Part shown: positions 7,245 through 61,331 of the stretch, piece by piece
Layout of the letters: every line of letters begins with the position of its first letter
How positions within the stretch are numbered: the first letter of the stretch is position 1
IMG/VR virus record: IMGVR_UViG_3300045533_000060
Length of the DNA: 64,000 nt
From: an uncultured virus (IMG/VR IMGVR_UViG_3300045533_000060)
Lineage: Duplodnaviria; Heunggongvirae; Uroviricota; Caudoviricetes
Reading direction: 5' to 3' (one strand)
Program-made: the position numbers and the translations under genes
The notes under the pieces: model-generated
Database searches by the model: none
The model's input: only the letters and a program-made list of their open reading frames with translations
Told to the model about the DNA's origin: nothing

Positions 7245-7261
7245 TATTAGAGCGAGGATCT

Positions 7262-10035: not shown

Positions 10036-10037
10036 AA

Positions 10038-10046
10038 TGATATAAT
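10038..10046 (+). promoter_or_regulatory. possible extended -10 promoter TGATATAAT
   Basis: Consensus TGnTATAAT in the gap before 10064. Confidence 0.4.
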
Positions 10047-10063
10047 ATACAGGGAGAATAGTC

Positions 10064-10876
10064 ATGGCACTATGGGGAAAATTCAATAAAAAAAGAGCGG
10101 AAGAACGAGCAGCAAGAAGGGCGAAAGAAAAACAACGGCAATTTGCAGGCAGTGCTGAATCAAAACAGTATAATGAGCTAAAAGGAATGGCATCTCAATT
10201 TGGGGTAGACCCTGCTAAACTTGGCGATTTTAAATTGGGGAATAAGCAAAATAATGCCATTTTAGAGCAACTTCGTTCCCAAGTTAATTCCGCTTCTTTA
10301 GCTAAAGCTCCCCAAAGACCTACTATGACATTTGGAGATGCTGCTCCAGCAGCTTTAAGACAATCACAACCTCCAATGGGAGCTACGAATCCAGCACAGC
10401 CAAACCCTGCTACGTCTCCAGCTCAACCTCAACAGCCTCCAAAATACTATCTTCAACCATCTCAACCTCAACCGCAGAATCCTAATCAACCAATGACTAA
10501 AGGACCAGAGAGCATTTACAGGGCTACTGCACAAACTGGGCTTACCATGCCGGGACAACAGCAACCACAACAACAGCAACCACAACAGCAACCACAACAA
10601 CAGCAAAACTTGAATAAGCCACCTGCAAATACCGATCAAAGATTTCAGCAATTGAGGAATCAATTTACGCAGCAACCACAGCAACCACAGCAACCACAGC
10701 AGCAACCACAGCAGCAACCACAGCAGCAACCACAGCAACCACAACAGCAACCTCCGAAGCCAGCTCAACCTGCACAGCAGCAACAAGCTCCACAGCCAGC
10801 TTCACAACAAACTCAACAGCCAGCTCAACAACAGAATCCTACTGATGAAGAGAAAAAACGCTTAGGGCAAATGTAA
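10064..10876 (+). CDS. Q/P-rich low-complexity protein
   Basis: RBS GGGAG; CAGCAACCA-type repeats encode QQP/QQQP. Confidence 0.7.
   Translation: MALWGKFNKKRAEERAARRAKEKQRQFAGSAESKQYNELKGMASQFGVDPAKLGDFKLGNKQNNAILEQLRSQVNSASLAKAPQRPTMTFGDAAPAALRQSQPPMGATNPAQPNPATSPAQPQQPPKYYLQPSQPQPQNPNQPMTKGPESIYRATAQTGLTMPGQQQPQQQQPQQQPQQQQNLNKPPANTDQRFQQLRNQFTQQPQQPQQPQQQPQQQPQQQPQQPQQQPPKPAQPAQQQQAPQPASQQTQQPAQQQNPTDEEKKRLGQM
10555..10790 (+). repeat. microsatellite-like CA(A/G)CAACCA tandem repeats
   Basis: Runs of cagcaacca/cagcagcaacca at ~10555-10605 and ~10670-10750. Confidence 0.9.
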
Positions 10877-10885
10877 GGACTATAT

Positions 10886-12850
10886 ATGCAAGACTTAAAA
10901 GAACTTCAGAAAAAAGCACAAGAATCTTTGGCTAATCAACAAGGTCTTATTAGGTCTTCTATAAGAGGAGATGAGTTTTCTCCTGAAGAAATTGCTGCAG
11001 AAATGGAACGCTTACAAGCTCAAGAAGCTGACAAGCAAAAATTTGAACAGCAAAAACAAGCACAAATGCAGCAACAATCTGATGCTGAATTAGATAGTAG
11101 AATTGAAAAAAGCTCTAAGCTTGAACGTCTAGGGTTAACAGAAAAGTACGATCCTAAATTGGCAGCACATGCTCTTAAGATTTTTCCTAGTTTAGAACAA
11201 TTTGGAATGAAGCCTGAAGTTAGTCCTGTGAAACAACAGGAAGAAGAGGTTTCAAGAGAACCTGCAGCGACAGAGGAAGAGGAGCAAGTTCCAGATGATG
11301 CAATTAAATCTAGCATATTAGAAACAGAAGGCGGATACTCAGATATTGAAGAAGATAAAGGTGGAGCCACTAATAGAGGCATTACCTTAGAGACTTATAG
11401 CAATTTTCTAGGAAGACCTGCATCTAAAGAAGAGTTACAAAACATCTCAGATAAAGAAGTTAACTCGATTTTTGGAAGATACTATAATGAAGCAGGGGGC
11501 GAAAAAATAAAAGACCCTAGGGTTAGAGAAGTTCTAGTAGATCAAAATTATAACAAAGGTACTAATTTTTTAAACCGAGTGAACGATATGCTAGGGACTC
11601 CTAGAGGTACTTCACTTAGTCAGGAAGCTATTGATAAAATCAACAGTACTGATCCTGATGAATTTTTAAAACAAGTCCTTTCTTCCGAAAGAGATATCTA
11701 TAAGAAAATAGCAGAAAAAGATCCATCTCAGCAGAAGTTTTCAGCTGGCTGGGACAAGCGTATTTTAGATTTAGCAAAAAAGACAGGGGTAGAATTAGAA
11801 GAAGAAAGGATGTCTAAAGAGCCAGCTCCTCAAAATATAGAAGAACTCTTAAAGAAAGCCAGAGAAGAAGAAGATAGAGCCAGCACAGCAAAACAATTTG
11901 CTGAGCTTAGAGACGCTATTATAGGAGTTGGGGCTGGAAAAGTTATAGCAAGCGATACTTCTAGCTACGATGAAAGAAAAGCTAAAGCTATGCGTCCTAT
12001 TAACGACATACTTCTAAAGGACGAATTAGAATCCAAACAAGCCAAATCTGATCCTAATAGTCAACTTTCTAAGCTAATGAGAAAATCTTTAGAGGAGATG
12101 GGTATTAATATGAAGGGATTTGAAAAAGTTCCATACTCCCAATTAGAAAAACTATACCCAACCTTCAGTCAAGCACTTTATAATAAACTATCTATAGAAG
12201 CTAAAAAAGGCGAAGCTGTTAGAAAAGCAACCGAGAAAGCAGAAACTAAATTAGAAAAATTAGATCAGAAAAAGCAAAAAGATATGACAGATCATATAAA
12301 CTTTTCAATAAATAATCTAAAAAAATCATACGAAAATTATTCAAAATCCCAAACAGCTCTAGATTCGGTTAGTACCATGTTAGCAGCTGCAAAAAATAAA
12401 ATAACTCCGGGTACTTCTGACGTTACCTTACTATATAGTTTTATTAGCGGTCTAGATCCTGCTTCGACAGTAAGAGAAGGAGAGATTGCCTTATCTAAAT
12501 CCGCAATGTCTTTGTGGGGAAAAGTAAAACAAGGAACTCTACAATTAGCTGGAGGAGACTTACTAGACTCTAATACTAGAAAATCAATTGAAGAAATTAT
12601 GAAAGTAATACAATCTGCTAGAGAAAAACAATTTGCTAAACAAAAAGCTAATTTAATTGAGGCTGGAGTTGGTAAAGGTTTGGACAAAACTATTTTAAAT
12701 TCATATATCTATCCGGAAGTGGATGCAATCTCTGTGTTATCGAAGCAAAAAGAATTAACTCCAGAAGAAAGACTACAAAAATATGAACAGATGATTAATA
12801 GAACTTCAGAATTACAAAAAAGAGATACTCGAAATAAAAAAGGTAATTAG
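10886..12850 (+). CDS. ejection-type protein with internal glycoside hydrolase family 108 (lysozyme) domain
   Basis: ILETEGGYSD..EDKGGATNRGIT (EGGY motif) and SQQKFSAGWDKRI inside a coiled-coil protein. Confidence 0.75.
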   Translation: MQDLKELQKKAQESLANQQGLIRSSIRGDEFSPEEIAAEMERLQAQEADKQKFEQQKQAQMQQQSDAELDSRIEKSSKLERLGLTEKYDPKLAAHALKIFPSLEQFGMKPEVSPVKQQEEEVSREPAATEEEEQVPDDAIKSSILETEGGYSDIEEDKGGATNRGITLETYSNFLGRPASKEELQNISDKEVNSIFGRYYNEAGGEKIKDPRVREVLVDQNYNKGTNFLNRVNDMLGTPRGTSLSQEAIDKINSTDPDEFLKQVLSSERDIYKKIAEKDPSQQKFSAGWDKRILDLAKKTGVELEEERMSKEPAPQNIEELLKKAREEEDRASTAKQFAELRDAIIGVGAGKVIASDTSSYDERKAKAMRPINDILLKDELESKQAKSDPNSQLSKLMRKSLEEMGINMKGFEKVPYSQLEKLYPTFSQALYNKLSIEAKKGEAVRKATEKAETKLEKLDQKKQKDMTDHINFSINNLKKSYENYSKSQTALDSVSTMLAAAKNKITPGTSDVTLLYSFISGLDPASTVREGEIALSKSAMSLWGKVKQGTLQLAGGDLLDSNTRKSIEEIMKVIQSAREKQFAKQKANLIEAGVGKGLDKTILNSYIYPEVDAISVLSKQKELTPEERLQKYEQMINRTSELQKRDTRNKKGN

Positions 12851-12851
12851 T

Positions 12852-14939
12852 ATGAAATTAACTCCAGAAGAAGAATTGGAACTTGACGAGTTACAAAAAC
12901 AACTTCCGTCTATAATGAAAGACTATGAAGATCTTAAATCCCAATTAACTCCAAAAGAAGAGGAGCCTGAAACTTCTATGTTAGAAGCAGGTCTACGAGG
13001 AGCTGCTCAAGGTTTAACTTTTGAGAATGCTGATGAAATTGCAGCACTTCTTTCTGGAGCAGGGGGATTAGTAACTGGAGAGGGTTTTGGAGAAGCTTAT
13101 GAAAAAGGACTCGAAGAGTCTAGAGCTGAATATAAAAAATCAGAAAAGGAATATCCTATTACTTCTGGAGCTGGTCAGATTGCAGGAGGTCTTGCTCAAG
13201 GACTTGCTTTGTCTATGATTCCGGGTGCTCCTGCGGCTACTGCTGGAAAAACAGCGGCTAATATCAGTAAATTACGAAACCTGCTAATGCCTACTGCAGG
13301 AGCTTCTGCAATGCAGAATATAAAAACTGCTGCAAAGACAGGAGCTATTGCTGGAGGACTGACAAAATTAGGAGCCTCTGAGGATAAAGGATTAGGAGAT
13401 CTAGCTTCTGGAGCTGTAAGTGGAGCTGCAGTAGGTGGAGTTTTGGGAGCTGGAATAGAAGGTATAAAAGGAGCAGCAGGAGCTATAGGTAAGAAAATAT
13501 CCAAAGATATTGACTTAGGCGAAGCTCCTGATGTGTTAAAGCAATTAAGAACCGCTATTCGAGAAGGAAAAAAGGGACAAGGTTTTGTAACTCCGAAAGA
13601 TAAACAAGCCATCATAGAAGAAACCAAAACTGTCGCTAAGAGCATAGTTCCTAAGATTAGCGAAGAATTAAAAAATGTTGGAGAATTAAAACAGAAAATT
13701 TTAGATAACTCACAAGAAGTATTTATTCCCGTAGAGAAATCTTTGCAGGAACTGCTGGATCAACTAAAAGTAAATCCGTATAAAAAAGCAGGTACTATAA
13801 GAAAGCAAATTCAAAGAATATACCTAGAAAAAAGACAAGCCTTAAACGGTGGACCTTTTACTCCTTCCGCTGCTTTTTCTTTAGCAAGTGATATAAGTGA
13901 GTTAATGAAGGATAAAAAACTCAATAAGTCTATTAAAAGCTTAGGTTTCAATACCGCAGAGGCTATTGAGAATACTATAGAGCAAGAATTAAACCCTCAA
14001 GTAGCAATCGCAGCTTTAAAGAAAGATCCAGAAGCTTTAACGATGTACTCTAAATATATCCAAGAACTTTCTCCTGAGCAGCTACTAGGTAAGCCTTTAA
14101 AGAAAGGAAAAAAACTAGCACCTGAAGAGGCTAGACAGAAAGCCGACGAACTAATGAAACTTTTTAGAGATGTTACAGATATGGTAGGAGCGGAAGACCC
14201 TGCTATAATAAATGATATGCTAAGAAAAGCAGATCCTCTAGTTACAAGTAATCTCAACCCTATAAAAATTCTGAACTCAAAAATGAGAGATGCTCTATCC
14301 TCAAGAGAAATTTTAGGGATAAAAAAGGGAGCTTCTTTTGATGAGAAGAAATATAGGGATTTTGAAAAGATCTTCCAAAATATTCTAGATCAAAGTAAAG
14401 ATACTAAATCTTCTCTCATTAAAAAAGAAAGATATAATACAGCACTGGGGAATTTGAAGAGATCGTTTCCTGAGTTAGGGAAAGAAATAGAAGAAAAAGT
14501 ATCTCCTCTAGTAGATAAATTAGAATTAAAATCATACTTAGAGACAGGTTCTTTAGATGCGTCTGGCGAAAAATCTGGAATGATCAAATCATTCTTAGGA
14601 AACCTAGGTCAGCTTGGGGTGGGGGCAGCTAATATCGGTGCTCAAACTTTAGAGGCGGCTGAGAAAGGAGTTGCTGGTCCCCTAAAATTAGGTGTAACAG
14701 TTCCTACTTCCACCTTTATACGTCCGGGAGTTAGTACTCTTACTTCTTTAAAATCGGCAGTTGATGAAATCGTAGAGGTCAGAAAATTCAGAGGAAAAGA
14801 ACCCGGAGTTTTTAAAATGATCTCTGAGAAATTAAACACAGCTCTGACAGAAAAAGATCCTGCTAGGAGAGCGGCTATCATAAATACACTCATGCAGTAT
14901 TCAGTATTCAGAAATTTAATTGGAAATAAAAAAGAGTAG
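12852..14939 (+). CDS. probable internal virion / ejection protein
   Basis: AGLRGAAQGLTFENADEI-type N-terminal motif typical of phage DNA-transfer proteins; G/A-rich hydrophobic segments. Confidence 0.6.
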   Translation: MKLTPEEELELDELQKQLPSIMKDYEDLKSQLTPKEEEPETSMLEAGLRGAAQGLTFENADEIAALLSGAGGLVTGEGFGEAYEKGLEESRAEYKKSEKEYPITSGAGQIAGGLAQGLALSMIPGAPAATAGKTAANISKLRNLLMPTAGASAMQNIKTAAKTGAIAGGLTKLGASEDKGLGDLASGAVSGAAVGGVLGAGIEGIKGAAGAIGKKISKDIDLGEAPDVLKQLRTAIREGKKGQGFVTPKDKQAIIEETKTVAKSIVPKISEELKNVGELKQKILDNSQEVFIPVEKSLQELLDQLKVNPYKKAGTIRKQIQRIYLEKRQALNGGPFTPSAAFSLASDISELMKDKKLNKSIKSLGFNTAEAIENTIEQELNPQVAIAALKKDPEALTMYSKYIQELSPEQLLGKPLKKGKKLAPEEARQKADELMKLFRDVTDMVGAEDPAIINDMLRKADPLVTSNLNPIKILNSKMRDALSSREILGIKKGASFDEKKYRDFEKIFQNILDQSKDTKSSLIKKERYNTALGNLKRSFPELGKEIEEKVSPLVDKLELKSYLETGSLDASGEKSGMIKSFLGNLGQLGVGAANIGAQTLEAAEKGVAGPLKLGVTVPTSTFIRPGVSTLTSLKSAVDEIVEVRKFRGKEPGVFKMISEKLNTALTEKDPARRAAIINTLMQYSVFRNLIGNKKE

Positions 14940-14947
14940 AGGCTGGT

Positions 14948-15274
14948 ATGGATAAAGATAGACTTAATAGAATAGAAGACAAGTTAGATAAAATCTCGGA
15001 TAAAATAGAAGAGATTAATATAACTATGGCAGAAAATACCAAGTCTCTAGTTATTCATGAAAAGAGAACTGATCTTGCGGAGTCGAGAATAGCCCTCAGT
15101 GAACTTCAACTAAAAGAAATATCTACTAGGAATAAAATTGTACTGGATAATATCGAGGAAAAAGTAGGTCCTATTCATAAGCACGTAACTGTAGTAAATG
15201 TAGTAGTAACCTACGTATTGCCAGCTATAGCAGCTATATTAGTCTTTCTTTTTAAAATGGGAATTATTAAATAA
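14948..15274 (+). CDS. XhlA-like coiled-coil membrane protein (holin-like)
   Basis: RLNRIEDKLDKI coiled coil plus one C-terminal TM helix; last gene of late block. Confidence 0.5.
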   Translation: MDKDRLNRIEDKLDKISDKIEEINITMAENTKSLVIHEKRTDLAESRIALSELQLKEISTRNKIVLDNIEEKVGPIHKHVTVVNVVVTYVLPAIAAILVFLFKMGIIK

Positions 15275-16109: not shown

Positions 16110-16540
16110 TAAAACTCCAAGGCAATACCTGCCCCTATAGTTTTAGAAGTGGTCATTATAGCTTGGAAATTTAAACTGCCATAAATTGGAGCAGATACTG
16201 TAGCCCCATATTCTAAATCCCCAGATATATTATTAAGATCTTTTAAAGCCAATACCCCGACTAAGATTCCTCTTTTTGTCTCAGAACTTGAAGAGGTAGC
16301 CACTGAAGTTGAAGTTTCTGATGTAGTATCTTCCGTCTCAGTTGTCTGAGTGGTAGTACTTCCATCAGGAGTTTTAACCTCAGTGGATACTTTTTTCTTC
16401 TTTGTCTGCTTTCTTTCAACCTCTACTATTTTAACTACTTCCTTTGTGATCACTTTAGGCTTAGGAGCCAACACAAATCTTCCAATAAGAAGAAAAGAAA
16501 TAGCTATAATAATGTTAGTTTTAGTTAGCAGACTTTTCAT
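16109..16540 (-). CDS. membrane-anchored protein with C-terminal beta strands ending in Phe
   Basis: N-terminal TM, K/T/S-rich linker, alternating hydrophobic strands ending ...GAGIALEF. Confidence 0.6.
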   Translation of the reverse strand: MKSLLTKTNIIIAISFLLIGRFVLAPKPKVITKEVVKIVEVERKQTKKKKVSTEVKTPDGSTTTQTTETEDTTSETSTSVATSSSSETKRGILVGVLALKDLNNISGDLEYGATVSAPIYGSLNFQAIMTTSKTIGAGIALEF

Positions 16541-17286
16541 TATAGCTCCAATCTACGAACAGTATTGATAATTTTAAAAAGCTCTTTAGAGTCATCTTCG
16601 CTGTCTGTAATAGGAGCAGTTAGAAGAGGACACTTAGCTACCTTGGCTTTAATTGCAAAAAATCCCATAGCAAAGACTTTCTCTGTAGTGCCATTTAAAC
16701 TTTCGTCACACTTAAGAGTAGCGTCTTCGTCAGCAAACCCATCTTTGATAGTATTATTACCAACAACCCAATACTCATCTCTAATAAGCTCTAGATAAGT
16801 TTTCTTATCCATTTTACCCTTTGTACGAGATACTGCCTGTTCATCCATCTTATCTACTAGTTGAATAACGTGATTCAATCTAGAGTTAACTTGCTGTGGA
16901 ATATCCCCTTGGAATCCTCCAGAGGCTCTATGAGACATAACAGTAGCGTATTTTGTAACATATCGCACAGGACTATTTTGTAGAATATGAAACCCCATAC
17001 TAGCAGCAAAAATAGCAACAGAGTGAACTGGTCTTCGGAGAGTATTCATAAAATCAATTAACTCTAGTCCAGATGCTACACTCCCACCCGGAGTATTCAA
17101 AATTAAATAAATGGGATCGTTAGCACTGCCAGTTTGAGCTAGTCTATTCAATTCGTGCATCACACTACCAATTGAAGATCTATCTACTGGACCAAATAAA
17201 CTCACAGTGTTGTCGCTAGTAAGCGTGATTTCTTTTGCAAAAGCTGAAGACAACATCAACAAAAATAAAAAAACAAACCTCATCAA
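16540..17286 (-). CDS. ClpP-like serine protease with signal peptide
   Basis: ILNTPGGSV, AASMG, MSHRASGG motifs; N-terminal MRFVFLFLLMLSSAFA. Confidence 0.8.
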   Translation of the reverse strand: MMRFVFLFLLMLSSAFAKEITLTSDNTVSLFGPVDRSSIGSVMHELNRLAQTGSANDPIYLILNTPGGSVASGLELIDFMNTLRRPVHSVAIFAASMGFHILQNSPVRYVTKYATVMSHRASGGFQGDIPQQVNSRLNHVIQLVDKMDEQAVSRTKGKMDKKTYLELIRDEYWVVGNNTIKDGFADEDATLKCDESLNGTTEKVFAMGFFAIKAKVAKCPLLTAPITDSEDDSKELFKIINTVRRLEL

Positions 17287-27503: not shown

Positions 27504-28301
27504 TCAATTGAACTTTATAACTCGAATACCACCTGTAGTTAGTTTAACAGCTAATATGTTAGTATCCAAGAAAAGCGAAGTGCCATTTGCGATATCATAT
27601 AGTTTACTAGAACCTGAACAGTTATCTGTTGAGTACACAGCCGAATTACTTGCATTAGGTTTTACAAAAAGACTTGTTCCCGAAACTGCGGTACAGTTTG
27701 CAGATACGTATGATGAGATAATAGCTCCACTACTCCCATCTCTACCATCCACTCCATTACTGCCAGCAGCCCCTTGTTCCCCCTGCAATCCTCTTAGACC
27801 AATTTCCCCACGTTCGCCTACTGCACCTTGGATACCGTCAATTCCTCTCGGACCTTCCATACCTGCTAAACCTTGAGGTCCAACCTTACCTTCTAATCCG
27901 GGCGGTCCTTGCTCTCCTCGTTCTCCTTGAAGTCCAATAGCTCCATCTCTACCATCAACTCCGTTACTACCATCTGCTCCATTAACCCCATCTACTCCGT
28001 CAGCTCCATCTTTCCCATCTTCTCCAGCAATACCATCTTCTCCATTAGTCCCATTGCAAGCAACTAGACTGTTTAGATATACATCGTACTCGTCTGTAGA
28101 GAAGTTATCATTCATATCCAGATAGATATCAAGTCTTTGTCCACCAGTAGAACATTCTATAATAGACGCAGCATTGATCTGCGATACTAATGAGTGCCCG
28201 TTTTCTCCATCCTTACCGTTCTTTCCATCAACTCCATTGGTCCCATTCTTACCATTTCTACCACATGAAACTAATAATAAACCTACGAGCAAATAACGCA
28301 T
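27504..28301 (-). CDS. collagen-like (G-X-Y) lipoprotein
   Basis: Start reassigned to MRYLLVGLLLVSC (RBS GGAGG, lipobox-like); two G-X-Y tracts. Confidence 0.8.
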   Translation of the reverse strand: MRYLLVGLLLVSCGRNGKNGTNGVDGKNGKDGENGHSLVSQINAASIIECSTGGQRLDIYLDMNDNFSTDEYDVYLNSLVACNGTNGEDGIAGEDGKDGADGVDGVNGADGSNGVDGRDGAIGLQGERGEQGPPGLEGKVGPQGLAGMEGPRGIDGIQGAVGERGEIGLRGLQGEQGAAGSNGVDGRDGSSGAIISSYVSANCTAVSGTSLFVKPNASNSAVYSTDNCSGSSKLYDIANGTSLFLDTNILAVKLTTGGIRVIKFN

Positions 28302-28311
28302 AGAACCTCCA

Positions 28312-30276
28312 TTAAAATAAATCAATATCTCCACCATCTTTAGAAGCTTTCTTAGCATCTCGAACTTCTCTAAGTTCCATGCGTTCGATATCCTCTAACT
28401 CTCTTATGTTACCAGTGAGTCCGTCCCAATGCAAATCTGCTGAGAATAATCTACCAGATCTATTCTTGACACAATCAATTGAGAAGAACTTATCTGTCTC
28501 AGGAGTGCGTGAACTGTACCCCGGACGATGAATCGTAAGGATAGCGGTACAAGCCTGAGCAATAGAAGAAGAACCTTTAGCCGAGTTATAGGATAGTAAC
28601 GGCTCATCAATCGTACTAGACATCTTATTAGGTTGCAAGAATACAACTACAGCTTTATTCATATTAATTGCAATCTCCCTTAGTCCTTGAATAACTTCTG
28701 CACTACTTTGAGTAGGATCAGAATATTTAGACTGGACCAGTTCAAGATAGTCCACTACAATTAATCGGAACTCAATGCCTAGCTTCTTTTCAGTATTGAT
28801 AATCGTTTGTTTCATTTCCTCAATACTCTGCCCTGTTTTGAAAACAAAACGTACATTCTTGTATTCCTCTGCTACAGTATCAGCAATCTTATTCTGCTCC
28901 ACAGAGGAACCAGTCTTGTATACTTCATATAGCTTATCTCTATCCATTCGAGTATGTCTCTGAATAAGCTTCTGAAATACATCATACTTGGACATATCAA
29001 AACTAAAGAACATCGAAGCGATATCAAGCTTGGAAGTATTGTTGTGTATAGTGACACCAAGAGATGTCTTACCTGAACCCGGAGGTCCAATGATACCGTA
29101 CAATCTTCCTACTTGAATATGCAAGTTCTTATCTAGGCAAGGGATTCCAAACTGCAGAGTATTCTTTTCAATCTCTCTAGCATAGCTTACGAATAAACTA
29201 GCTGTCTCTTTAATGTCATGAACATCTGCTTCATCATTAAGCACAGCATGAGAAGGAACCATGCCATGTAGCTTCATGAGCAGGTCATCGTTAGTAATAG
29301 AATACACTCCACCTTTCCAAGTAGGAGAGTAGAGCTGAGATATAATGTTCTTATATATCTCTTTCTTTGGAAACTTATCTTCGCCTAATCGTTCAGCTTG
29401 TAACTCTGCCGCAGACTTTAGAAAGTGGTAGGTTTGAGTTTCATTAAAGCCTAGAGACTTTAGCGTTGAGCCGAGAATCATGAGAGCATGACTACGCTCT
29501 CCCATCTCAAAGAATCCAAGAGAAAGAAGATACTTCTCAGGAGTAAGAAACTTAGGCTTACCAGTCCACTCTACATCTGACAAGTCATACGCCACTTTCA
29601 TCTTAGCTTCAATTGAAGGAGCTGCTGGAGTTTTCCTACGGAGAGTTTCCACGAACACGCTACCATCTGCAGGTTTGAAAATGGATGCTAGTTCAGTTGG
29701 CTCCATAGTATTCGTAGCCGCTTCTTTAATCTCTTCGATAGTAGCATCGGGCAATGCAGAAAAATCCAAAGGGATCTTATACAATCCTGTATCCATGTGT
29801 CTACTCAGAGGCAAACGAAGGATACGATTTGAATTGTATATCTGCTTGTCCAAAGTGTTAAGCCCATCCCCAAGATTAAGGCAGATGTTCTTAACTTCAG
29901 TAGGAGTGAAGCTACTTCCTTTAAGTATCACTTCAACTTGGAATCCTTTCTTTCCGGAAAAGAATAAAGCAATGTTATCTGGTTCGAATTTTGCGTTGTC
30001 GATAAGTCTACTGCAAAGTTCGTAAGCATCTTCCTTCGCTCTATCTAGATTATCTAAGCTATCAAAATCCCAGTACAGCTTATTAGTAACAGTGTCAGTT
30101 ATTCCCGCAACACTTCCGGTTTTTTTAAAGGTATTAAATTGTTCGTCGTTGTAGAGGAAAGCAGATGTATAGTAGTCCTTTGTCAAGTCAGTATCTTTGT
30201 ATAGATCACTACTGACTGGAACAAGGATACCTTTATCTTGTACACCTTTACAAATGCGAATATAGTTCATTTGCAC
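28312..30276 (-). CDS. primase (AEP-type)-helicase (DnaB/RecA-like) fusion
   Basis: YWDFD, FSGKKGFQ, RILRLP; GPPGSGKT Walker A, IVVDYL, KNRSG. Confidence 0.9.
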   Translation of the reverse strand: MQMNYIRICKGVQDKGILVPVSSDLYKDTDLTKDYYTSAFLYNDEQFNTFKKTGSVAGITDTVTNKLYWDFDSLDNLDRAKEDAYELCSRLIDNAKFEPDNIALFFSGKKGFQVEVILKGSSFTPTEVKNICLNLGDGLNTLDKQIYNSNRILRLPLSRHMDTGLYKIPLDFSALPDATIEEIKEAATNTMEPTELASIFKPADGSVFVETLRRKTPAAPSIEAKMKVAYDLSDVEWTGKPKFLTPEKYLLSLGFFEMGERSHALMILGSTLKSLGFNETQTYHFLKSAAELQAERLGEDKFPKKEIYKNIISQLYSPTWKGGVYSITNDDLLMKLHGMVPSHAVLNDEADVHDIKETASLFVSYAREIEKNTLQFGIPCLDKNLHIQVGRLYGIIGPPGSGKTSLGVTIHNNTSKLDIASMFFSFDMSKYDVFQKLIQRHTRMDRDKLYEVYKTGSSVEQNKIADTVAEEYKNVRFVFKTGQSIEEMKQTIINTEKKLGIEFRLIVVDYLELVQSKYSDPTQSSAEVIQGLREIAINMNKAVVVFLQPNKMSSTIDEPLLSYNSAKGSSSIAQACTAILTIHRPGYSSRTPETDKFFSIDCVKNRSGRLFSADLHWDGLTGNIRELEDIERMELREVRDAKKASKDGGDIDLF

Positions 30277-41695: not shown

Positions 41696-41923
41696 TGATA
41701 CCTCCTATGCATTTCGGGCATTGTACCCAAAATGTAACCCATTAACTTTATGGGAAATCTTAATTTTCTTTTTAAAACATCTCAAAAAATTAACCAGTAT
41801 AAGTAAAAGAATACTGTAGAGTGATTGATAGTTTACTGCTTTCATACTGAAAATGAAAGCTAGGTAATAAATACCATCTTGCGATAACTTAAAGCTATGG
41901 CAGAAAATAGTCATTCCCTATAC

Positions 41924-42205
41924 TAAACCACTCCACAATATCCCTTTAATCTGTTCAGTTTACTGTTTATCCCCTTATCACACAATGGTACTTTCCAGAC
42001 GAGGATGCATCTTGTCATGACACACCGCTACACTCCACCATTGTACTTCGGGCTTTGGAACGAGAGTTCGTACTTTTCGGTACTTAGAGGATATACCTAT
42101 CCTCACTCGCTATACCACCATGCGTCAAAGCGTTCAGGCTCGCACCCATTACACTCTTCATGATGTCGTACCTATATGGTACTTCAGTAGATATTGCAGG
42201 TTACT
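41924..42205 (-). ncRNA. candidate large structured RNA (~280 nt)
   Basis: 11-bp enclosing stem (42189-42199 with 41933-41943) whose G-U pairs favour the minus strand; several internal hairpins; five AAGUAC copies; no credible ORF. Confidence 0.55.
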
Positions 42206-42284
42206 ACTTACCCCGATCTATCATAGTGATACTATGCGTCAATCGTTCTTTTGGTTATCGTGACTCGTTGCCTTGTCACTCTTA

Positions 42285-42709
42285 AATCTTATCTTAGTTT
42301 TTCTAAACAAACAAGCTAGGTAACTTTTTCCTATCGTCTTGTTGTTCGTTGTGTCCTTCGTTCTTCGTTGGCTTGATTGCCTTCGATGAAATAAGATTAT
42401 CACAATGAAATTAAAAAACAAGCTAGGCAATCTTTGCCGTTATCCTGAAACATCGCATATTAATAAGGACAAAGGGAACTATCAGAAAATAGGAAACTGT
42501 CAAGTAGGCAATCTTTGCCGTTTAGCTATACATAAAAAGAACACCTAGTCAACTAGGCAAATCTTTCCCCTAGAGTATATCAGTCAAGTATTAAAAGAGT
42601 ATCACCTTATAGAATACCATCATGCCCCTCGTCTAGTCAAGTAGGTAAATTCTGCCGATCCCTTTCCCTAGCATATAAATTCTGTTTAGTCAAGTGGGCA
42701 AAACTTTCC
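42285..42709 (-). promoter_or_regulatory. array of leftward early promoters with GGYAA-N3-TTKCC boxes
   Basis: Six boxes (42319, 42426, 42507, 42556, 42644, 42697), each 3-4 bp upstream of TTGAC(A/T) or TTGTTT; e.g. TTGTTT-N17-TAAGAT, TTGACT-N18-TATTCT. Confidence 0.7.
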
Positions 42710-42890
42710 CTCTTGACAGAGTGATCTAGTCAGCTTCTCTTATTCCTGAGTAGATTAGTTTGCTTCGTATATTATAGAATGACGCTAAGCCCCACCATAC
42801 CCCCCCCCCAGTGGGGTGCCGCTCCTAGCCAGTTTGGGACTGTCTGTACACAAGAATTGTAGTATATATATCTATGCACTCACTTTATGT

Positions 42891-42901
42891 AAACAAATGT
42901 A
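42891..42901 (+). promoter_or_regulatory. putative late promoter motif AAACAAATGTA
   Basis: Recurrent motif, 27 bp before the GTG at 42928. Confidence 0.6.
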
Positions 42902-42927
42902 CTTAGCACTTTACATAGGAGATATCT

Positions 42928-44136
42928 GTGGCTAAGAAAGTATATGAACTCGCTAGAGAACTTAAAATGGATGATAAGGATCTAGTAAGAAAACTAAAAG
43001 TAATGGGTATTAAGATAAATACAGCCCTATCGGAACTTTCAGATGAGGACTATCAGCGTGGGTTGCAAGAAGGAAAGGCTCCTGTAGGTAGAATAGAATT
43101 AGATAGCGCAGTAGCTAAAGCAAAAAAAGAAGCTTTGAATAGGAGAAAATATGAGGAGCAGTTTAAGGTTCCTCCTCAATTTAAAAATCCGCAACAATTC
43201 AGCGGAGCGCAAGGTGAAAGGATGCAAGCCTATATAAAGGAGCTAAAGTCAAACTTAAGAAATGGCAAGTATGCCCCCGAAGAAGCTGATAGAGTTATAA
43301 ATCTAATAACTAAAATGGAAGATTTAAAAATAGAAAATGATCTTAAAGTGGGAAGGTTAGCTGGAAGGAAAGGGGAGCTTGCGGAAAATCCAGAGCTAAC
43401 CAAGAAGCCTGAACAGACCTACAGAAATGATCCTAAAAAATTAGAGGAGCTACGACTAGAAAAGGAAGCTCGGATAGCGGCAGAGAGAAATAAAAAGCCC
43501 AACCTTCAAAATCCAGATCCCGAAATGAGGTACACTCCAGCTACTAAAAGTGAATATATGCCTAGAAGTTCAGCCCAACAAGCTGCGATTGATAAGCAAA
43601 AAAATCCTACAAAAGGAACTATTGGTAGGCTTTTAACTGACTATAATGATGAGTATGCACGAGTCATGTCAAAACAGGTTGCCAAAGAAACTGGCGAAAA
43701 AGCAATAAAAGAAGTGGCATCCGAGGTTGGAGAAGAAGCTGGAAAAGAGATTGCTCAAAAGCTATTTAAAAAATATGCAGGAAAACTTGCTATAGGAGCT
43801 TTAACTGGAGGATTGTCCCTAGGAGCAGAGGCTGCTTCAGAAGGTCTAGATTCTCAAGATTCTGGAGCAAGAAAGAATATGCCCGATTATTGGTTAGAGC
43901 GTGGAGTTAGAGATAGAGATGAACAGATTCAAAGAGCACGATTATCTTCATTTAAAGAAGATTTACCGTCCTACAATAAGATACCGGGTGCATACGAAAA
44001 ACCAGAGCTTCGTAAGTATAAAGAAGATGTTCTTCGAGCAGAGAAAGAAGGTACTCTACGGGATAACTATGTAGAGGATACTCAAGAAGAAGACGACTAT
44101 AAAAAGTTTAAGTCTTTGATGGGGAAGTTGAGATAG
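42928..44136 (+). CDS. IF2 N-terminal domain fused to a charged helical protein
   Basis: KKVYELARELKMDDKDLVRKLKVMGIKINTALSELSDED closely follows IF2_N consensus; GTG start with GGAG RBS. Confidence 0.75.
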   Translation: MAKKVYELARELKMDDKDLVRKLKVMGIKINTALSELSDEDYQRGLQEGKAPVGRIELDSAVAKAKKEALNRRKYEEQFKVPPQFKNPQQFSGAQGERMQAYIKELKSNLRNGKYAPEEADRVINLITKMEDLKIENDLKVGRLAGRKGELAENPELTKKPEQTYRNDPKKLEELRLEKEARIAAERNKKPNLQNPDPEMRYTPATKSEYMPRSSAQQAAIDKQKNPTKGTIGRLLTDYNDEYARVMSKQVAKETGEKAIKEVASEVGEEAGKEIAQKLFKKYAGKLAIGALTGGLSLGAEAASEGLDSQDSGARKNMPDYWLERGVRDRDEQIQRARLSSFKEDLPSYNKIPGAYEKPELRKYKEDVLRAEKEGTLRDNYVEDTQEEDDYKKFKSLMGKLR

Positions 44137-44196
44137 TGATATCTATGCACGGGCTATTTCCGTAGCATAGGGACTACTAGAAGATAAAGGAAATGT

Positions 44197-44490
44197 ATGG
44201 ACGACTTACTAAATAAACTTAAACGCAAAATTATTCCTAAAGATGAGGTGGTAATTAGCCCTGCTGAAAGAGAGCAGCGTCTTCGTCAAATGTTGGGATA
44301 TGAGATGCCAAAGGATATTGATCCGGAGTTTGCTATAGATGTTCCAGATGATAGTGGGGACGAGGAGTTTGGTATTAAAAGTCCTCTTGAGTTAGAACCT
44401 CAAAGACCTATGTACGATGCTGATGGGAACCCTACTGGTAAGGTTGATCAGATGGCTAGGTATAAAAAGAAGAAAGCCCCGAATGGATGA
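44197..44490 (+). CDS. hypothetical protein
   Basis: RBS AAGGA; 97 aa. Confidence 0.6.
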   Translation: MDDLLNKLKRKIIPKDEVVISPAEREQRLRQMLGYEMPKDIDPEFAIDVPDDSGDEEFGIKSPLELEPQRPMYDADGNPTGKVDQMARYKKKKAPNG

Positions 44491-44905
44491 GATCACCAGA
44501 GTATTGAGAAAACTTAAAGACCTTGCACCAGATGCCTTACAGGAAGCTCATGATGAGATGATTGACGGATTTGATGAGCAGGGTAGACCTATGGCGGAAG
44601 GACATGCTACTTTTGAGCTAGATGAAAAAATGCACAAAGTTCCATTCCAGAAGCTACGAGATGTACTCCAAGGAAAAGATCCTAGCAGCGTAGTAACTTC
44701 GAAAGAAGTATTTAGAGGTCGTATCCCAAAGCTATCAGAGACTGGTATGCTCGAAACAGCTTTAAGAGGAGCTTCTGCTGCTTCAGAGGATAATTTTAAT
44801 GAGGATAGTCCTGATGGAGACTATTACTGGGATAAAAATTACAATTACGAATATATGCACCCAGATGCTGAGAAGCAGAGGGTACTAGGAAAGGTTAGGA
44901 AATAG
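44483..44905 (+). CDS. hypothetical acidic protein
   Basis: Likely start MDEITRV overlapping upstream stop. Confidence 0.55.
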   Translation: MDEITRVLRKLKDLAPDALQEAHDEMIDGFDEQGRPMAEGHATFELDEKMHKVPFQKLRDVLQGKDPSSVVTSKEVFRGRIPKLSETGMLETALRGASAASEDNFNEDSPDGDYYWDKNYNYEYMHPDAEKQRVLGKVRK

Positions 44906-44906
44906 T

Positions 44907-45125
44907 ATGAGCAATTTTCTAAAATTGATGACGCTTCTAGGTGGATACCAAATGCTCAAGCCTGAGGATAAGGAAGTAGATAGTTCTGAAGATATTAAGG
45001 CTATGCAGATGGCAGAGGCTGCTCAAGAGAAAAAGTACCTATCTTCTCCTGCTCGATTAGATAAGAACATGTCCCCTGAGGATAGAGAGCTACGAAGACG
45101 TATTATGGAGAAGTACGGCAAGTAG
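44907..45125 (+). CDS. hypothetical protein
   Basis: 72 aa; last gene of plus-strand island. Confidence 0.55.
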   Translation: MSNFLKLMTLLGGYQMLKPEDKEVDSSEDIKAMQMAEAAQEKKYLSSPARLDKNMSPEDRELRRRIMEKYGK

Positions 45126-45497
45126 CTTCAATTCAGTTTCCAATTCTTCCAGATTCCACGCCAGATGTTTAGCAACCACTAGCATCCTATATTCGTCAGG
45201 TACTGCGCTCATCTCGCTTTCTAGGCGATTCTGGAGCGTCTGGAGATGTGGGTATTTTTGTAGAAATAGGTTTAGTTCTTCCATACTCTATGCACTCACT
45301 GCACTTCGTAGTGCTTCCGTTATCAACCGTATCACATATTTCTTAACTATTCGTGAACGCTTAGTTTTAATCTTGTAGTGCTTTCTAGCCAGTATTCCTA
45401 ATACATGCATGTCTTTACGGGTAAAGCCCATTAGTCCCCATTTATGACCAAACTTAGTTACTACAATTTGTCCTTCTAGTTTAAACATTATGCACTC

Positions 45498-45827
45498 CTA
45501 TAGATACTTACCTAGAAGTATCTCATCTTCCATAATATCTACAATTTCTAGTCCGTAATGTAGTATGAATTTTAAAGAATCTGTTACCTTTAAATTATTC
45601 AACTCAACATCCCCAGTCATAGTAATGCAGCCAGCTTCTTTAGCCAAAGCCACCAGCTTATCCGCCATCATTGTCCCTGCCTTCATAGCTCTAGCCTCTG
45701 GCTTTATGTACATGTGCTGTATATGCAAATTAGTATCTTGTATCTTATAAAATATAAATCCATAGTCATCTTCGAAGTAATCTAGATTTTGAGTTTCTTT
45801 AAAGTATTCTTGTATCATAAATCTCAT
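45498..45827 (-). CDS. GNAT family acetyltransferase
   Basis: HMYIKPEARAMKAG; resembles 7262..7585. Confidence 0.75.
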   Translation of the reverse strand: MRFMIQEYFKETQNLDYFEDDYGFIFYKIQDTNLHIQHMYIKPEARAMKAGTMMADKLVALAKEAGCITMTGDVELNNLKVTDSLKFILHYGLEIVDIMEDEILLGKYL

Positions 45828-46063
45828 TTATATATTAAGTGAGTATGCTTTCTACTTGCACAATTTTTTCCACAATTCTCTCCCCAACTAACTGAAGGTT
45901 GCTGATTAGGACACTTAATCACATGCAGTATAGTTGGAGAGGGTCCTCCATCATCAAGCTTGAACACTCTACAACCCTCTAGTTCCGGAGGCATTTTATA
46001 GTCTCTCTCTTCTGTATAGGAAGCAGAGCAGGATATGATAAATAGCAGAAACAGATACTTCAT
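45824..46063 (-). CDS. small putative lipoprotein
   Basis: MKYLFLLFIISC lipobox-like start. Confidence 0.55.
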   Translation of the reverse strand: MKYLFLLFIISCSASYTEERDYKMPPELEGCRVFKLDDGGPSPTILHVIKCPNQQPSVSWGENCGKNCASRKHTHLIYK

Positions 46064-46383
46064 CTGTATACCTCTGTAGATGTTACTTCACTGGCTTCCA
46101 TGAGTAAACAGAACTCACGAATTACAGTGTGGGGTTGAATATTTCCGCATGTGAAGCAGTCCACATAAGCAATGCCTTCTTCTGGATAGGTATGCACTGT
46201 AATGTGACTCTCCGCTAATAGTATAGCTGCAGTTAGACCTTGAGGATAGAACTCGTGCTTAGTTGCTTGGAGTATAGTCATACCTGCATTATGAGCTGCC
46301 AAAAGTAAATAGTTGTAAGTTTTGTTGTTATCTACAAAGTCCCCTTGGACTTTTGAAAAGTGAGTATATCTCATTCTATGCAC
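46060..46383 (-). CDS. speD: S-adenosylmethionine decarboxylase proenzyme (pyruvoyl type)
   Basis: F.PQG.T...LLAESHIT.HTYPE.....DCFTCG; start probably MRYTHF. Confidence 0.9.
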   Translation of the reverse strand: MHRMRYTHFSKVQGDFVDNNKTYNYLLLAAHNAGMTILQATKHEFYPQGLTAAILLAESHITVHTYPEEGIAYVDCFTCGNIQPHTVIREFCLLMEASEVTSTEVYR

Positions 46384-48850: not shown

Positions 48851-49494
48851 TCCAATGCTTCCGATATTGCTGGAAACTGATCTATAAAAATATTTTGAAT
48901 AGCGGTAGCTATATCTGCATGTTCTTTTTGAGTTCCGTTTTCAGATCGCAAAGAAATGTAGTGAATCCAGTTTCTAACATTACCCGTCATATATAAGGTA
49001 GTTTCTGTAGATAATGGAAGTAGGAACCTAGCTTGTTCTTTTGCAATACCTCTCCGCAAAGCTTCATCATACATGGCTCTAGCATCTTCGGTGATTAATT
49101 GCTGTGCCATAGCGAACCAGTCTCTTGTATCATTATCTAGATCGTCGATTGAGTTTTGTCTATTTTTTACATCTTGTCTTCTTGCTGAGTAGATTTCGAA
49201 ATTTGTAGCCTCCGCATACCTCTGGCTAAATTCTTGGAAAACAAAACTTCGATGCCTTAGAATTTGCGCAGCTATAGCTCGACTTGTTGTGATCTCTATT
49301 GTCATATTGACATGTTCAAATACAGACCAGTGAGAGTTTTTAATACAGTAGCCTAAAAGTTTGCTAGAAGTTTTTGTATTCATTTGGTTGGAAGGATTAG
49401 AAACTCTAGCTACATACGCCATCATTTCTTCGGAAGTAAATTCTTCAATTTCTTTTTTAACAGGCTTTGTAACTGCTACAAGCTCTACTCTCAT
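48841..49494 (-). CDS. thyX: FAD-dependent thymidylate synthase
   Basis: HWSVFEH, QILRHRSFVFQEFSQRY, EQARFLLP, TQKEH. Confidence 0.95.
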   Translation of the reverse strand: MRVELVAVTKPVKKEIEEFTSEEMMAYVARVSNPSNQMNTKTSSKLLGYCIKNSHWSVFEHVNMTIEITTSRAIAAQILRHRSFVFQEFSQRYAEATNFEIYSARRQDVKNRQNSIDDLDNDTRDWFAMAQQLITEDARAMYDEALRRGIAKEQARFLLPLSTETTLYMTGNVRNWIHYISLRSENGTQKEHADIATAIQNIFIDQFPAISEALEWK

Positions 49495-50552
49495 TCCTTT
49501 TCCTTTAGGAGCTTTAGCTCCACCATTTTATATGTATACGCTACATAATTATCGACGGTGTTTACTTGAATAGTTTCATAGTTCTTATTAAAATTTGGAA
49601 TTGGTGTACACATTGAATGATCAAAAAATTCTTGATTTAAAGTTTCGTATTTATTTTTCAGAACTACTTTTGGAGCTTTACCTACTTGTCCTATATTAAA
49701 AACAGATGGACCTAGAGGGCTTGCCGTATAGTAGCTTAGAGTGCTAATTCCCGCAGCTTCCAGAGTTTTTCTGATGCATAAAAAACATTTACTATTATAA
49801 GCCAAAGGTCCACTTTGAACACTTATAACCCCACCTTCCTCTAGTAAACCTTTCACTGCTCTATAAAATTCCACACTGTATAGTTTATTAAAAATTTCTT
49901 GATCGGGATCTGGAAAATCGCAAATTATAACATCGTACTTTCTTTCTAGCTTTGTCTCTCCCCAATCTCTAGATGTCACGTATCTCCAAGCATCTTCGTT
50001 TATAACTGTACATTTTGACATAGAACTTTCATTTAACTTACTTAGTAAAGGTTCATTAGTAAATAGACTCGTAATGGTTTCGTCAAAATCCACTAAGGTC
50101 ACTTCACAAGCTGGTGCTTCTTTAAAAATTTGTTTTGCCGCCAGCCCATCCCCACCTCCTAGAATTAAAATTCTTTGAGGAGCTTCTTTTAGACCTCCGA
50201 TAGCGGGACTTACTAGTGCCTCGTGATATGTTCTCTCGCAGTTAGTAGTAAATTGAACTTGGTTATTTATTAGCAGTGCATGGTCGTCATTTGAATCTTT
50301 TAGTAAGTGTATATCTTGGAATCCTTCGTTTGAATGGAATACAACTTGATAATCTTCTATTGGAGCAACTATTTCTTTTGCTTTTTGAGAAAATACGTCC
50401 ATCAATTCAAAATGCTCTTTTCTAATTTCTGTAGTAAGGGTGTATATCTGCCCCTCAATCATTTTTCCAATTGTTAAACTGTTAGGTTTTACTGAAAAAA
50501 ATAAATCTCCTATTTGAATTGTAAAATCTTTTCTAATAAATAAATGCTGCAT
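49491..50552 (-). CDS. speE: polyamine aminopropyltransferase (spermidine synthase family)
   Basis: QF...E..YHEALV.P, ILGGGDG, LVDFD, EDA, DVIICDFPDP, LYSVEFY. Confidence 0.9.
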   Translation of the reverse strand: MQHLFIRKDFTIQIGDLFFSVKPNSLTIGKMIEGQIYTLTTEIRKEHFELMDVFSQKAKEIVAPIEDYQVVFHSNEGFQDIHLLKDSNDDHALLINNQVQFTTNCERTYHEALVSPAIGGLKEAPQRILILGGGDGLAAKQIFKEAPACEVTLVDFDETITSLFTNEPLLSKLNESSMSKCTVINEDAWRYVTSRDWGETKLERKYDVIICDFPDPDQEIFNKLYSVEFYRAVKGLLEEGGVISVQSGPLAYNSKCFLCIRKTLEAAGISTLSYYTASPLGPSVFNIGQVGKAPKVVLKNKYETLNQEFFDHSMCTPIPNFNKNYETIQVNTVDNYVAYTYKMVELKLLKEKE

Positions 50553-50960: not shown

Positions 50961-51290
50961 TCATTTGTTCCTCACATATAAATTTTTTAAATCTATTAAA
51001 ACCGACCCCTCTGGAACGGCTTCTCTTTCACATGGTCCAAATTGAAGCAAAAACATTGAAATTTCTATATTCACCCTCTTATTAGTGATCCCTGTGTAGG
51101 TATGTCTTATATTTTTAGATAAAAACTGCGATAATTTTTTATAATCCTTTGGATTTACCGTAAATTTTGTAACGTCTAAGTTTTTTAAATCGTCAGATTT
51201 TCCTAAGGATTTCAAGCATTTACGATAAAAATCAATAACAGGGTTGCCTGTTTTTATCTTTAGTCTAGTAGGGAATTTTATAATTTTCAT
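50961..51290 (-). CDS. hypothetical protein
   Basis: Start reassigned to MKIIKF after GGAG RBS. Confidence 0.55.
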   Translation of the reverse strand: MKIIKFPTRLKIKTGNPVIDFYRKCLKSLGKSDDLKNLDVTKFTVNPKDYKKLSQFLSKNIRHTYTGITNKRVNIEISMFLLQFGPCEREAVPEGSVLIDLKNLYVRNK

Positions 51291-51329
51291 AAATGTCTCC
51301 TGTTTTATTATAACAAATGTACATAGGAG

Positions 51330-51542
51330 ATGCAAATGGTTTGTAAAACCTGCAAAGAAGATAAAGTTAAAGAGCCAATTGTTCGTAAGGATGTGACCCG
51401 ATTCATAGATCAATCGGGTCGTTTATGGAATGGTAAAGTTTGTCCCGATTGTTATAAAGCATACAACCGGGAACGTATGCGTCTTAAGAGGTTAGAACTA
51501 CTCCAGAAAGATGAAAATTCGCAGACTCTGAAGATCGAGTAA
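51330..51542 (+). CDS. lone plus-strand zinc-finger protein
   Basis: CKTC...CPDC; own TAACAAATGTA motif (51311) and AGGAG RBS. Confidence 0.7.
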   Translation: MQMVCKTCKEDKVKEPIVRKDVTRFIDQSGRLWNGKVCPDCYKAYNRERMRLKRLELLQKDENSQTLKIE

Positions 51543-60488: not shown

Positions 60489-61331
60489 ATGAGTGATAAT
60501 AATAAACCAAAACCAGCAAAAAGTTTAAGTGATTTTTGGGCACAGTTTAAAAAAAACTATCCAGATTCTTATAAAGAAAAATATCCTTATACTCCAAAAA
60601 AAAGATTATCTGGAGCTGATAGTTTAATTCCGGAAAATATAAAAGAAAAAATTCTTGAAAATAAAATGAATGATCAATTTATAACAAAAGATGATAAATG
60701 GAGAGCAGAGCAGAACGAAATTATAAGAAGAGAAAATGCTGCAGAGAAAGCAGCCAAAGAAGCTGCTGAGAAAGCAGAAAAAGAAGCTGCGGAAAAAGCG
60801 GCTAAGAAAGTTGGAAAAGAAGTTATTTATGACAATAAAGGAAATTTGCTAGATATAACAGGTAAAATTGTAAAAAAAGCTGGAGATGTTAAGAAACCTC
60901 CTTTTGGAAGTGGAAAATTAGGTATGCTTCTTGGCTTAGGAGCAGCAGCACTGGGAACAGTAATCCCTAAGGATAGCATGGCTGGCACAGCTATGAGAAT
61001 TTTAGATGAGGGAGATCCTGCTTCTTTATTTTTTCCAGAAGGTGCTGGAGAAGGAGAGGATGAGGAGGTTATGAAAATGAAAGAGGAGCAAAGACAGAAA
61101 TACCTTGATAACCTAGTAAAGAATGTTCCAAAAAATAAAAAACTAAGAAGCGAGGAACAAGATAATATTAAAAAACAAGTTGAGCCTATAGTTAAAATTT
61201 TAGGTGGAGATCCTGATTTAAAAGAAAAAGATGCTTTGAAGATGATAGGGGAAACTCCATCTGGAGATGAAAATCTGTTAAGCGTAGAGGATAGCGAAAG
61301 AAAATTAAAGAAAAAATTCGGATACGAATAA
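60489..61331 (+). CDS. hypothetical head-associated protein
   Basis: EKAA repeats and a G/A hydrophobic segment; between portal and scaffold. Confidence 0.6.
   Translation: MSDNNKPKPAKSLSDFWAQFKKNYPDSYKEKYPYTPKKRLSGADSLIPENIKEKILENKMNDQFITKDDKWRAEQNEIIRRENAAEKAAKEAAEKAEKEAAEKAAKKVGKEVIYDNKGNLLDITGKIVKKAGDVKKPPFGSGKLGMLLGLGAAALGTVIPKDSMAGTAMRILDEGDPASLFFPEGAGEGEDEEVMKMKEEQRQKYLDNLVKNVPKNKKLRSEEQDNIKKQVEPIVKILGGDPDLKEKDALKMIGETPSGDENLLSVEDSERKLKKKFGYE

Follow-up and report, generated by a model that had tools for sequence, protein, structure and literature searches.

A phage gene that starts with an IF2 N1 domain and shares a C-terminal module with structural-block genes of related phages

Introduction

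Why should a phage gene begin in the same way as the gene for bacterial initiation factor IF2? This question is raised by the gene called gene 1 here (42928-44136, plus strand), which leads a small island of plus-strand genes (42928-45125) in the DNA of an uncultured tailed phage (IMG/VR record IMGVR_UViG_3300045533_000060). The window, that is, the whole stretch of DNA analyzed, covers 64 kb of a 78,087-base contig, and its source is freshwater metagenomes. The N1 domain of IF2 is almost universal in bacteria. To my knowledge, no firm function had been assigned to it before a NusA result was obtained in Escherichia coli in 2025. It was found that gene 1 encodes a 402-residue protein composed of an IF2 N1 domain, a linker, and a C-terminal module that defines a protein family. 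The reading preferred here, with a probability of about 0.4, is that gene 1 encodes a late, probably virion-associated modular protein whose N-terminal part is a swappable cargo, in this case a mimic of IF2 N1. The figure is not higher because packaging, timing and binding are all inferred, as are delivery and the target; the domain identity, the family architecture, the gene positions and the motif upstream of the gene were observed directly.

Results and Discussion

The N-terminal domain of gene 1

Gene 1 is an open reading frame (ORF) with a GTG start codon. The initial annotation had proposed that its product begins with an IF2 N-terminal domain and has no GTPase domain, and both proposals held. 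The Pfam family IF2_N (PF04760) matched residues 4-41 with 35.4 bits against a gathering cut-off of 25.3 (E 9.3e-9). No other Pfam family matched gene 1 at E<=0.1, and NCBIfam gave no hit; thus, neither the G domain nor the C-terminal tRNA-binding domains of IF2 are present. A relative, P0002, which is 62% identical overall, has an IF2_N domain that scores 44.3 bits and is also above the Pfam cut-off. Based on the Pfam match, a structural model and the alignment to IF2, the domain was assigned to residues 1-54 (42928-43089, plus strand).

Which of the N-terminal domains of IF2 is this? The phage domain was aligned with the fronts of IF2 sequences from Bacteriovoracia loci (alignment A7), in which the infB gene lies directly 3′ of nusA; a NusA alignment (A6) was also made from Bacteriovoracia loci. 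In A7, the phage domain begins at residue 1, as IF2 does. A model of residues 1-95 built on A7 is confident over residues 1-50, with predicted local distance difference test (pLDDT) scores of 83-89, and has the small strand-helix-helix-strand-helix fold of the solved IF2 N domains. Phage residues 1-41 are 49% identical to residues 1-41 of the two-copy IF2 of Peredibacter, which is its first IF2_N copy (E 2e-10), and no significant alignment was obtained with the second copy in the region before the G domain (N2). Since residue 1 aligns to residue 1 of the first copy and not to the second, the gene 1 domain is of the N1 type rather than the N2 type, as judged by sequence. The structural score of the phage domain against N2, the copy found on the 30S subunit (7uiu, 7unv), is also the lower one. 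The phage-encoded domain differs from the bacterial N1 domain, including that of the Thermus IF2 structures (4b3x/4b47), in having no IF2 linker, N2, G or C domains behind it, in its fusion to a phage-specific module, and in the lack of a conserved His of the aligned IF2 fronts.

How widely does this domain occur in phages? In five related phage records, IF2_N was found in none, and the same search was positive in 11 of 14 control genomes. A word-based search with residues 1-60 returned the query alone. When the N-domain was compared with 50,697 phage records, four weak hits were obtained in short unannotated records (best E 8e-3). Single-protein scans of bacterial genomes with the N-domain and with the terminase returned nothing.

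A small family with varied N-termini

The family of gene 1 is defined not by IF2_N but by the C-terminal ~120 residues, which comprise a Gly/Ala-rich segment and the module. Nine homologues were found by a word-indexed search, and 22 representatives at E<=0.001 among 1.84 billion proteins; P0001 in the public collection is the identical 402-residue protein. All 20 hits other than the query and P0028 match through about residues 216-402 only. P0028 is a 90-residue protein made of IF2_N alone and matches the N-terminus of gene 1. Within the family, IF2_N is confined to P0001 and P0002. A weak GNAT-like motif was seen in P0006, P0012 and P0016 (best Pfam E 0.0086, under the cut-off), HExxH strings occur in P0017 and P0022, and the long members have 675-759 residues. 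By their sequences, the members of this small family share a constant C-terminal part but differ in what precedes it, as would be expected if the constant part served for delivery or anchoring.

The conserved module (43858-44082, plus strand; MPDYWLERG ... YEKPE ... GTLRDNYVE) has its only copy of the window in gene 1. In a 26-sequence alignment of the family, E324, G326, Y381 and V382 are invariant. No match in PHROG, NCBIfam, PADLOC, PDB or the Protein Atlas explains the module: PDB searches by sequence and by family profile gave nothing below E 0.04, and the best Protein Atlas score for residues 270-402 was 0.88, under the lead level of 0.9.

The model of the full protein is all helical, with a mean pLDDT of 69. 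It includes a confident helical hairpin at residues 94-190 (43207-43497, plus strand; pLDDT 79-96), which is 68% identical to that of P0002 and has only generic helical structure matches; within it, confidence is very high over residues 94-153. The Gly/Ala-rich segment at residues 280-310 (43765-43857, plus strand) is 87% identical to that of P0002 and has pLDDT below 50. A membrane helix or signal-arrest-release helix in gene 1 was considered and rejected; the maximum 19-residue Kyte-Doolittle mean is 0.94, as compared with 2.48 for the anchor of the protein encoded at 14948-15274. The maxima are below 1.6 in 24 of the 26 family members and in the fragment P0023, which is outside that alignment; the tail-anchored control P0030 reaches 2.48. 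The initial annotation had also noted a resemblance of the Gly/Ala segment to the product of 60489-61331. What is left of it is a weak likeness of composition (pairwise BLAST E 0.005; family profile E 0.047), and paralogy of the two genes was rejected on these values.

Paralogy of gene 1 with the gene at 12852-14939, which encodes a 695-residue phrog_5880 protein, was rejected as well, since profile comparison gave no more than a match of 25 residues in the tails (hhalign E 0.0046, probability 7.6%). In this match, the tail ..REKEAILFGLNQQPAFRELVRK of the family members of 675-759 residues (alignment A4) resembles the C-terminal tail of the 12852-14939 product. The tail common to them may be a docking peptide, as far as can be judged from such a short likeness.

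The position of the family gene in related phages

Is the family gene placed outside the structural block in other phages too? In the window, the structural genes lie on the plus strand from 56333 to the window end and from 1 to 15274. The remainder consists of two minus-strand blocks, the only break in which is the plus-strand island at 42928-45125, 13 kb and 27 kb away from the ends of the structural block. Thirteen related loci were fetched, and L089 (1.2 kb) and L091, whose contig is as long as that of L006, were left out of examination. In 10 of the 13 (L002-L006, L087, L088, L090, L092 and L093, of which L002-L004 are near-identical), a family member of 675-742 residues is encoded by the penultimate gene of the structural block. 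The gene order in these ten loci is a protein of ~620-650 residues, a 118-residue GNAT protein, a protein of ~290-320 residues, one of ~416-462 residues, the family member, and an 89-residue homologue of 14948-15274, after which the plus-strand late block ends. In L001, a member of 358 residues comes after a holin-like gene (Pfam E 3.1e-9) and a homologue of 12852-14939. In total, the family member lies inside the structural block in 11 of the 13 related loci, whereas in the window it lies outside.

In the window, the corresponding slot is taken by 12852-14939, whose product matches phrog_5880 (E 6.9e-18) and, weakly, phrog_342, 'internal virion protein with endolysin domain' (E 7.5e-7). This gene follows 10886-12850, which bears a GH108 lysozyme domain. 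The family profile detected no second copy of the C-terminal module in the window; therefore, the island gene is the family member of this phage, moved out of the block.

Two neighbors in this part of the block may be described here. The gene at 10886-12850 encodes a structural-block protein of 654 residues with a peptidoglycan-binding domain in addition to the GH108 domain, and its product probably degrades the cell wall as part of the virion. The late block ends with 14948-15274, the gene for a 108-residue protein that is coiled in its N-terminal part and has one membrane helix, at the C-terminus (Kyte-Doolittle 2.48); this product may be a holin-like lysis protein.

One relative has the island without gene 1. 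Locus L094 belongs to a 63.8-kb relative that also carries a homologue of 12852-14939. Positions 42770-42935 of the window and 95-295 of L094 have a mean column identity of 74%. In L094, the upstream block and the late motif are followed directly by a homologue of island gene 2 (62% identity), then by two other small genes, a homologue of island gene 3, and the same convergent gene. Gene 1 is missing between the promoter and gene 2, and a search of 76% of the L094 genome returned no family member. With the promoter region and the downstream genes in common and gene 1 in the window alone, the two sequences indicate that gene 1 was either inserted between the promoter and gene 2 in the lineage of the window or lost in that of L094. 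At the contig end of L094 (1-120), a GC-rich stretch of GT/GC repeats lies just upstream of the conserved promoter block; it may mark the end of the genome or result from faulty assembly.

Contigs from four further sequencing runs, belonging to at least two studies, contain pieces of gene 1 with at most one difference. The contigs of these DNA runs are short and none spans gene 1, so that the uncovered parts are uninformative.

A late-type motif upstream of gene 1

When is gene 1 expressed? The sequence AACAAATRTA has six exact matches in the window, all on the plus strand, where 0.77 would be expected and the highest count in 100 shuffles was four; the late motif that the initial annotation had reported ahead of the island is thus real. 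The copies precede 381, 42928, 56333 (the packaging operon), the capsid gene at 62469, an ORF after the capsid terminator at ~63824, and a small ORF at 51330, and five of the six sit 16-127 nt upstream of plus-strand starts. In the related record G001, 9 of 11 matches are on the strand of the structural genes, and the reversed control gave one. Because of the genes that it precedes, the motif is probably a promoter that is used late. The copy of gene 1, AACAAATGTA (42892-42901, plus strand), follows an upstream block (42792-42891, plus strand) common to L094, in which a poly-C hairpin is followed by TATATATCTATGCACT..TTATGTAAAC. A Shine-Dalgarno sequence, AGGAG (42917-42921, plus strand), was read 6 nt upstream of the GTG start codon.

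A second small island with this motif lies at 51312-51542, within a minus-strand block. There, AACAAATGTA (51312) and AGGAG are followed by a plus-strand ORF of 70 residues with two CxxC pairs (zinc ribbon). This island overlaps the annotated start of a minus-strand ORF (50961-51413).

A possible host target

What could an N1 domain do at the front of such a protein? The gene 1 product would be a late-expressed, soluble, elongated helical protein of two unrelated pieces. The C-terminal ~120 residues would tie it to a conserved phage structure, most likely the virion interior, since the family members of the relatives hold the slot of an internal virion or ejection protein, where the structural block ends. 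The swappable cargo would be the N-terminal part, which here may have come from the very start of an infB gene as the N1 sub-domain. Such a cargo could mimic N1 and engage the host partner of N1, which in E. coli is NusA, at its KH2/AR1 region. The mimic could then tether the phage protein to the transcribing RNA polymerase, or displace IF2 from NusA.

The case for NusA comes from E. coli. As described in a 2025 report, IF2 Domain I co-purifies with NusA in pull-downs and gives in-cell crosslinks at positions 13, 50 and 88, and it loses its nucleoid-associated binding when the C-terminus of NusA is deleted (PMC12297416). The AlphaFold model of its authors places N1 together with residues 57-90 on NusA KH2/AR1. 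They judged the behavior of Domain I in cells to be incompatible with ribosome binding and explained it by NusA (PMC12297416). No other partner is known to have been shown for N1. A 2026 preprint repeats the IF2-NusA link and notes that the lengths of the IF2 and NusA extensions correlate weakly. Replication restart and phage Mu have been linked to full-length IF2 as well (PMC3334882). By the title of the entry 7uiu, the IF2_N copy on the 30S subunit is N2. Since the shown partner of N1 is NusA, while the copy bound to the 30S subunit is N2, the ribosome is by analogy a less likely target of the phage domain than NusA.

A phage that has captured an N1 domain, preserved its fold and joined it to a module whose other copies lie among virion genes would be a natural probe of N1 function, and would reveal whether N1 offers a surface that is worth attacking. 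In the most specific form of the hypothesis, the conserved module would be a virion ticket for interchangeable cargo, and the IF2 N1 cargo a NusA decoy that places the protein on the transcribing RNA polymerase or uncouples the transcription-translation coupling by NusA and IF2. I regard this form as a long shot. If it were true, the newly described IF2-NusA link would be a target of phage attack.

Are there known systems of this kind? Short-tailed phages have ejection proteins, such as gp14-16 of T7 and gp7, gp16 and gp20 of P22. The gene 1 family resembles such internal virion and ejection proteins (PHROG 342, 511) in being encoded at the close of the structural block, next to a lysozyme-bearing protein of virion type, in having Gly/Ala-rich segments, and in its presumed late promoter. 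It differs in that no homology to them is detectable, that the gene of the window is outside the structural block, and that its presence in virions is putative. Some packaged phage effectors also combine a targeting piece with variable cargo, namely T4 Alt and internal proteins, the N4 virion RNA polymerase, and the 'polyvalent proteins'. Like these, the family has one conserved part and interchangeable others, some of which carry weak enzyme-like motifs (HExxH, GNAT-like); unlike these, its constant part is C-terminal with a fold not assigned, the enzyme-like motifs are weak, and the packaging and delivery of gene 1 product are only putative. Lambda N and its kin are early antitermination factors that act through host NusA. 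NusA would be a possible common target, provided that the mimic can bind it in the way of E. coli IF2 N1, but there is no likeness in sequence or structure to lambda N, and gene 1 lies behind a late-type motif.

Weighing the explanations

Several observations weigh against a late, virion-associated protein with an N1 mimic as its cargo. On the side of the domain, the copy of the window lacks a His that is conserved in more than 90% of the aligned IF2 fronts (A7). Of the parts common to the two carriers, IF2_N has diverged the most (48% identity, as against 60% for the module and 87% for the Gly/Ala segment), and the phage sequence past residue 54 is unrelated to IF2. NusA binding has been described for E. 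coli only, and there residues 57-90 beyond N1 contribute as well. On the side of the virion, gene 1 and 24 scanned family members gave no hits in PHROGs, and so no homology to a proven virion protein, and the 50,697 phage records contain no protein match to the whole of gene 1 or its C-terminal part. The synteny would equally fit a role linked to lysis, because the family genes adjoin holin-like genes. The late timing of gene 1 is suggested by the motif only. Since the motif also precedes the zinc-ribbon ORF at 51330, which is not necessarily structural, late expression does not imply packaging.

Could the protein then be late without being packaged? It might be an assembly or scaffold-like factor or a lysis-associated one, in which a winged-helix-like N-terminal domain binds nucleic acid (phage DNA or its own mRNA) and not a host protein. 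I consider this unlikely, though it is the strongest competitor. No MerR or helix-turn-helix family matched gene 1 in Pfam at E<=1, whereas IF2_N passes its cut-off; compared with the winged-helix DNA-binding domains of pSK1 Par (8csh), RacA (5i44) and MerR regulators, there is no sequence-family match, and the phage sequence is specifically IF2-like. An N-terminus that varies among the members would be odd for a core function in assembly or lysis, and L094 retains the island without gene 1 or, in the searched part of its genome, any other member. A different possibility is that IF2_N is an evolutionary passenger without a function of its own: a 5′ fragment of a host infB gene would have been picked up during the move of the module into the island, where it served as a folded cap with a start codon. 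This would account well for the start of the domain at residue 1 exactly as in IF2, for its being the fastest-changing part of the protein, for the loss of a nearly invariant His, and for its absence from the five related phage records in a search that works on control genomes. The junction of promoter and gene 2 in L094 lacks gene 1 as a whole, so that the gene arrived or left as a unit, as this scenario also expects. However, two carriers of only 62% overall identity both have the domain above the Pfam cut-off, its model folds confidently, and a useless domain of 54 residues would be expected to decay or vanish; I therefore find the passenger scenario rather improbable. If the domain were a passenger and the protein not packaged, gene 1 would be merely another orphan late gene.

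The initial annotation had taken the protein to be packaged, injected, and docked on ribosomes or in competition with host IF2, thereby biasing translation. Docking on ribosomes found no support, and this reading seems quite improbable as a whole. The loading into heads remains putative, with indirect backing from the internal-virion-protein slot that the module holds in related phages and from N-termini that differ in the manner of cargo. The domain is N1 and not N2 by sequence, and the E. coli data argue against ribosome binding by Domain I (PMC12297416). Moreover, because gene 1 has no G domain and no C1/C2 domains, its product cannot replace any known activity of IF2.

Other genes of the island

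Besides gene 1, the three further plus-strand genes of the island noted in the initial annotation were confirmed, with the start of gene 3 corrected from 44417 to 44483. Gene 2 (44197-44490, plus strand) is an ORF for an acidic protein of 97 residues, and its 62%-identical homologue is the one that comes first behind the same promoter block in L094. Gene 3 (44483-44905, plus strand; 140 residues) belongs to a small conserved family with a YYWDKNYNYEYM motif (alignment A8), which is represented in L094. This family comprises 25 proteins of 127-144 residues, gene 3 product included, at E<=0.001, and it is absent from four other relatives (G002-G005). Gene 4 (44907-45125, plus strand) is an ORF of 72 residues whose 3′ end overlaps a convergent gene (45090-45284), and it has no family match in Pfam, PHROGs, NCBIfam or PADLOC. 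For the four island proteins, PHROGs, NCBIfam and PADLOC gave nothing except for one weak PHROG hit of gene 3 (E 0.0053).

A hint of the host

The comparison of IF2_N with bacterial IF2 sequences was also expected to indicate the host. A pattern derived from the phage domains was used to select the 80 best bacterial IF2 fronts; 37 of these are from Bacteriovoracia, and four more labelled 'Proteobacteria' nest among them. In the tree, the two phage domains pair with each other (support 80/79) and join Bacteriovoracia with weak support (88/71). Because the tree is built on 50 columns and on a biased sample, chosen by a sequence pattern, the grouping serves as a hint only. Among the portals of cultured phages, the closest comes from a Silvanigrella phage (28.5% identity, E 3e-64). 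Taken together, these two sequence comparisons point loosely to a host in Bdellovibrionota.

Other features of the window

The head and packaging genes of the window encode a P22/SU10-type portal, a T4-type large terminase and a major head protein. Other genes encode a family A DNA polymerase, a DnaB-like helicase, a Clp protease, a class II ribonucleotide reductase and polyamine enzymes. A DNA-level search of the 50,697 phage records with the region gave no match, and an Rfam scan of the whole window found no family at its gathering score.

The gene at 1798-6822 encodes 1674 residues and contains tandem repeats of ~330 nt at 3142-4112; it is a probable tail fibre gene, because the C-terminal half of its product is conserved across all related loci. 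A collagen triple-helix repeat protein (27504-28358; Pfam E 5.2e-22) is encoded inside the minus-strand replication block. The polyamine pair consists of S-adenosylmethionine decarboxylase and spermidine synthase (46060-46383 and 49491-50552) and adjoins a GNAT acetyltransferase gene (45498-45827). In related phages, a ClpP-like protease is encoded beside a ClpX/ClpB-like AAA protein (11336-12262 and 13346-14137 in L005); the window has the protease (16540-17286).

Upstream of the island, ~1 kb between divergent gene blocks (41915-42927) has no convincing ORF. In the 1.2-kb gap there, the palindrome TAGGCAA-N3/4-TTGCC, with a 5-bp stem and a loop of 3-4 nt, is repeated in six tandem copies (42317-42710). 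Five further copies were found at 29134, 35991, 37737, 39311 and 47050. All 11 palindromes point the same way, which on the minus strand is the direction of the minus-strand genes, and the array may consist of leftward promoters or operators. It varies between metagenome runs, with one unit replaced at 42511-42636.

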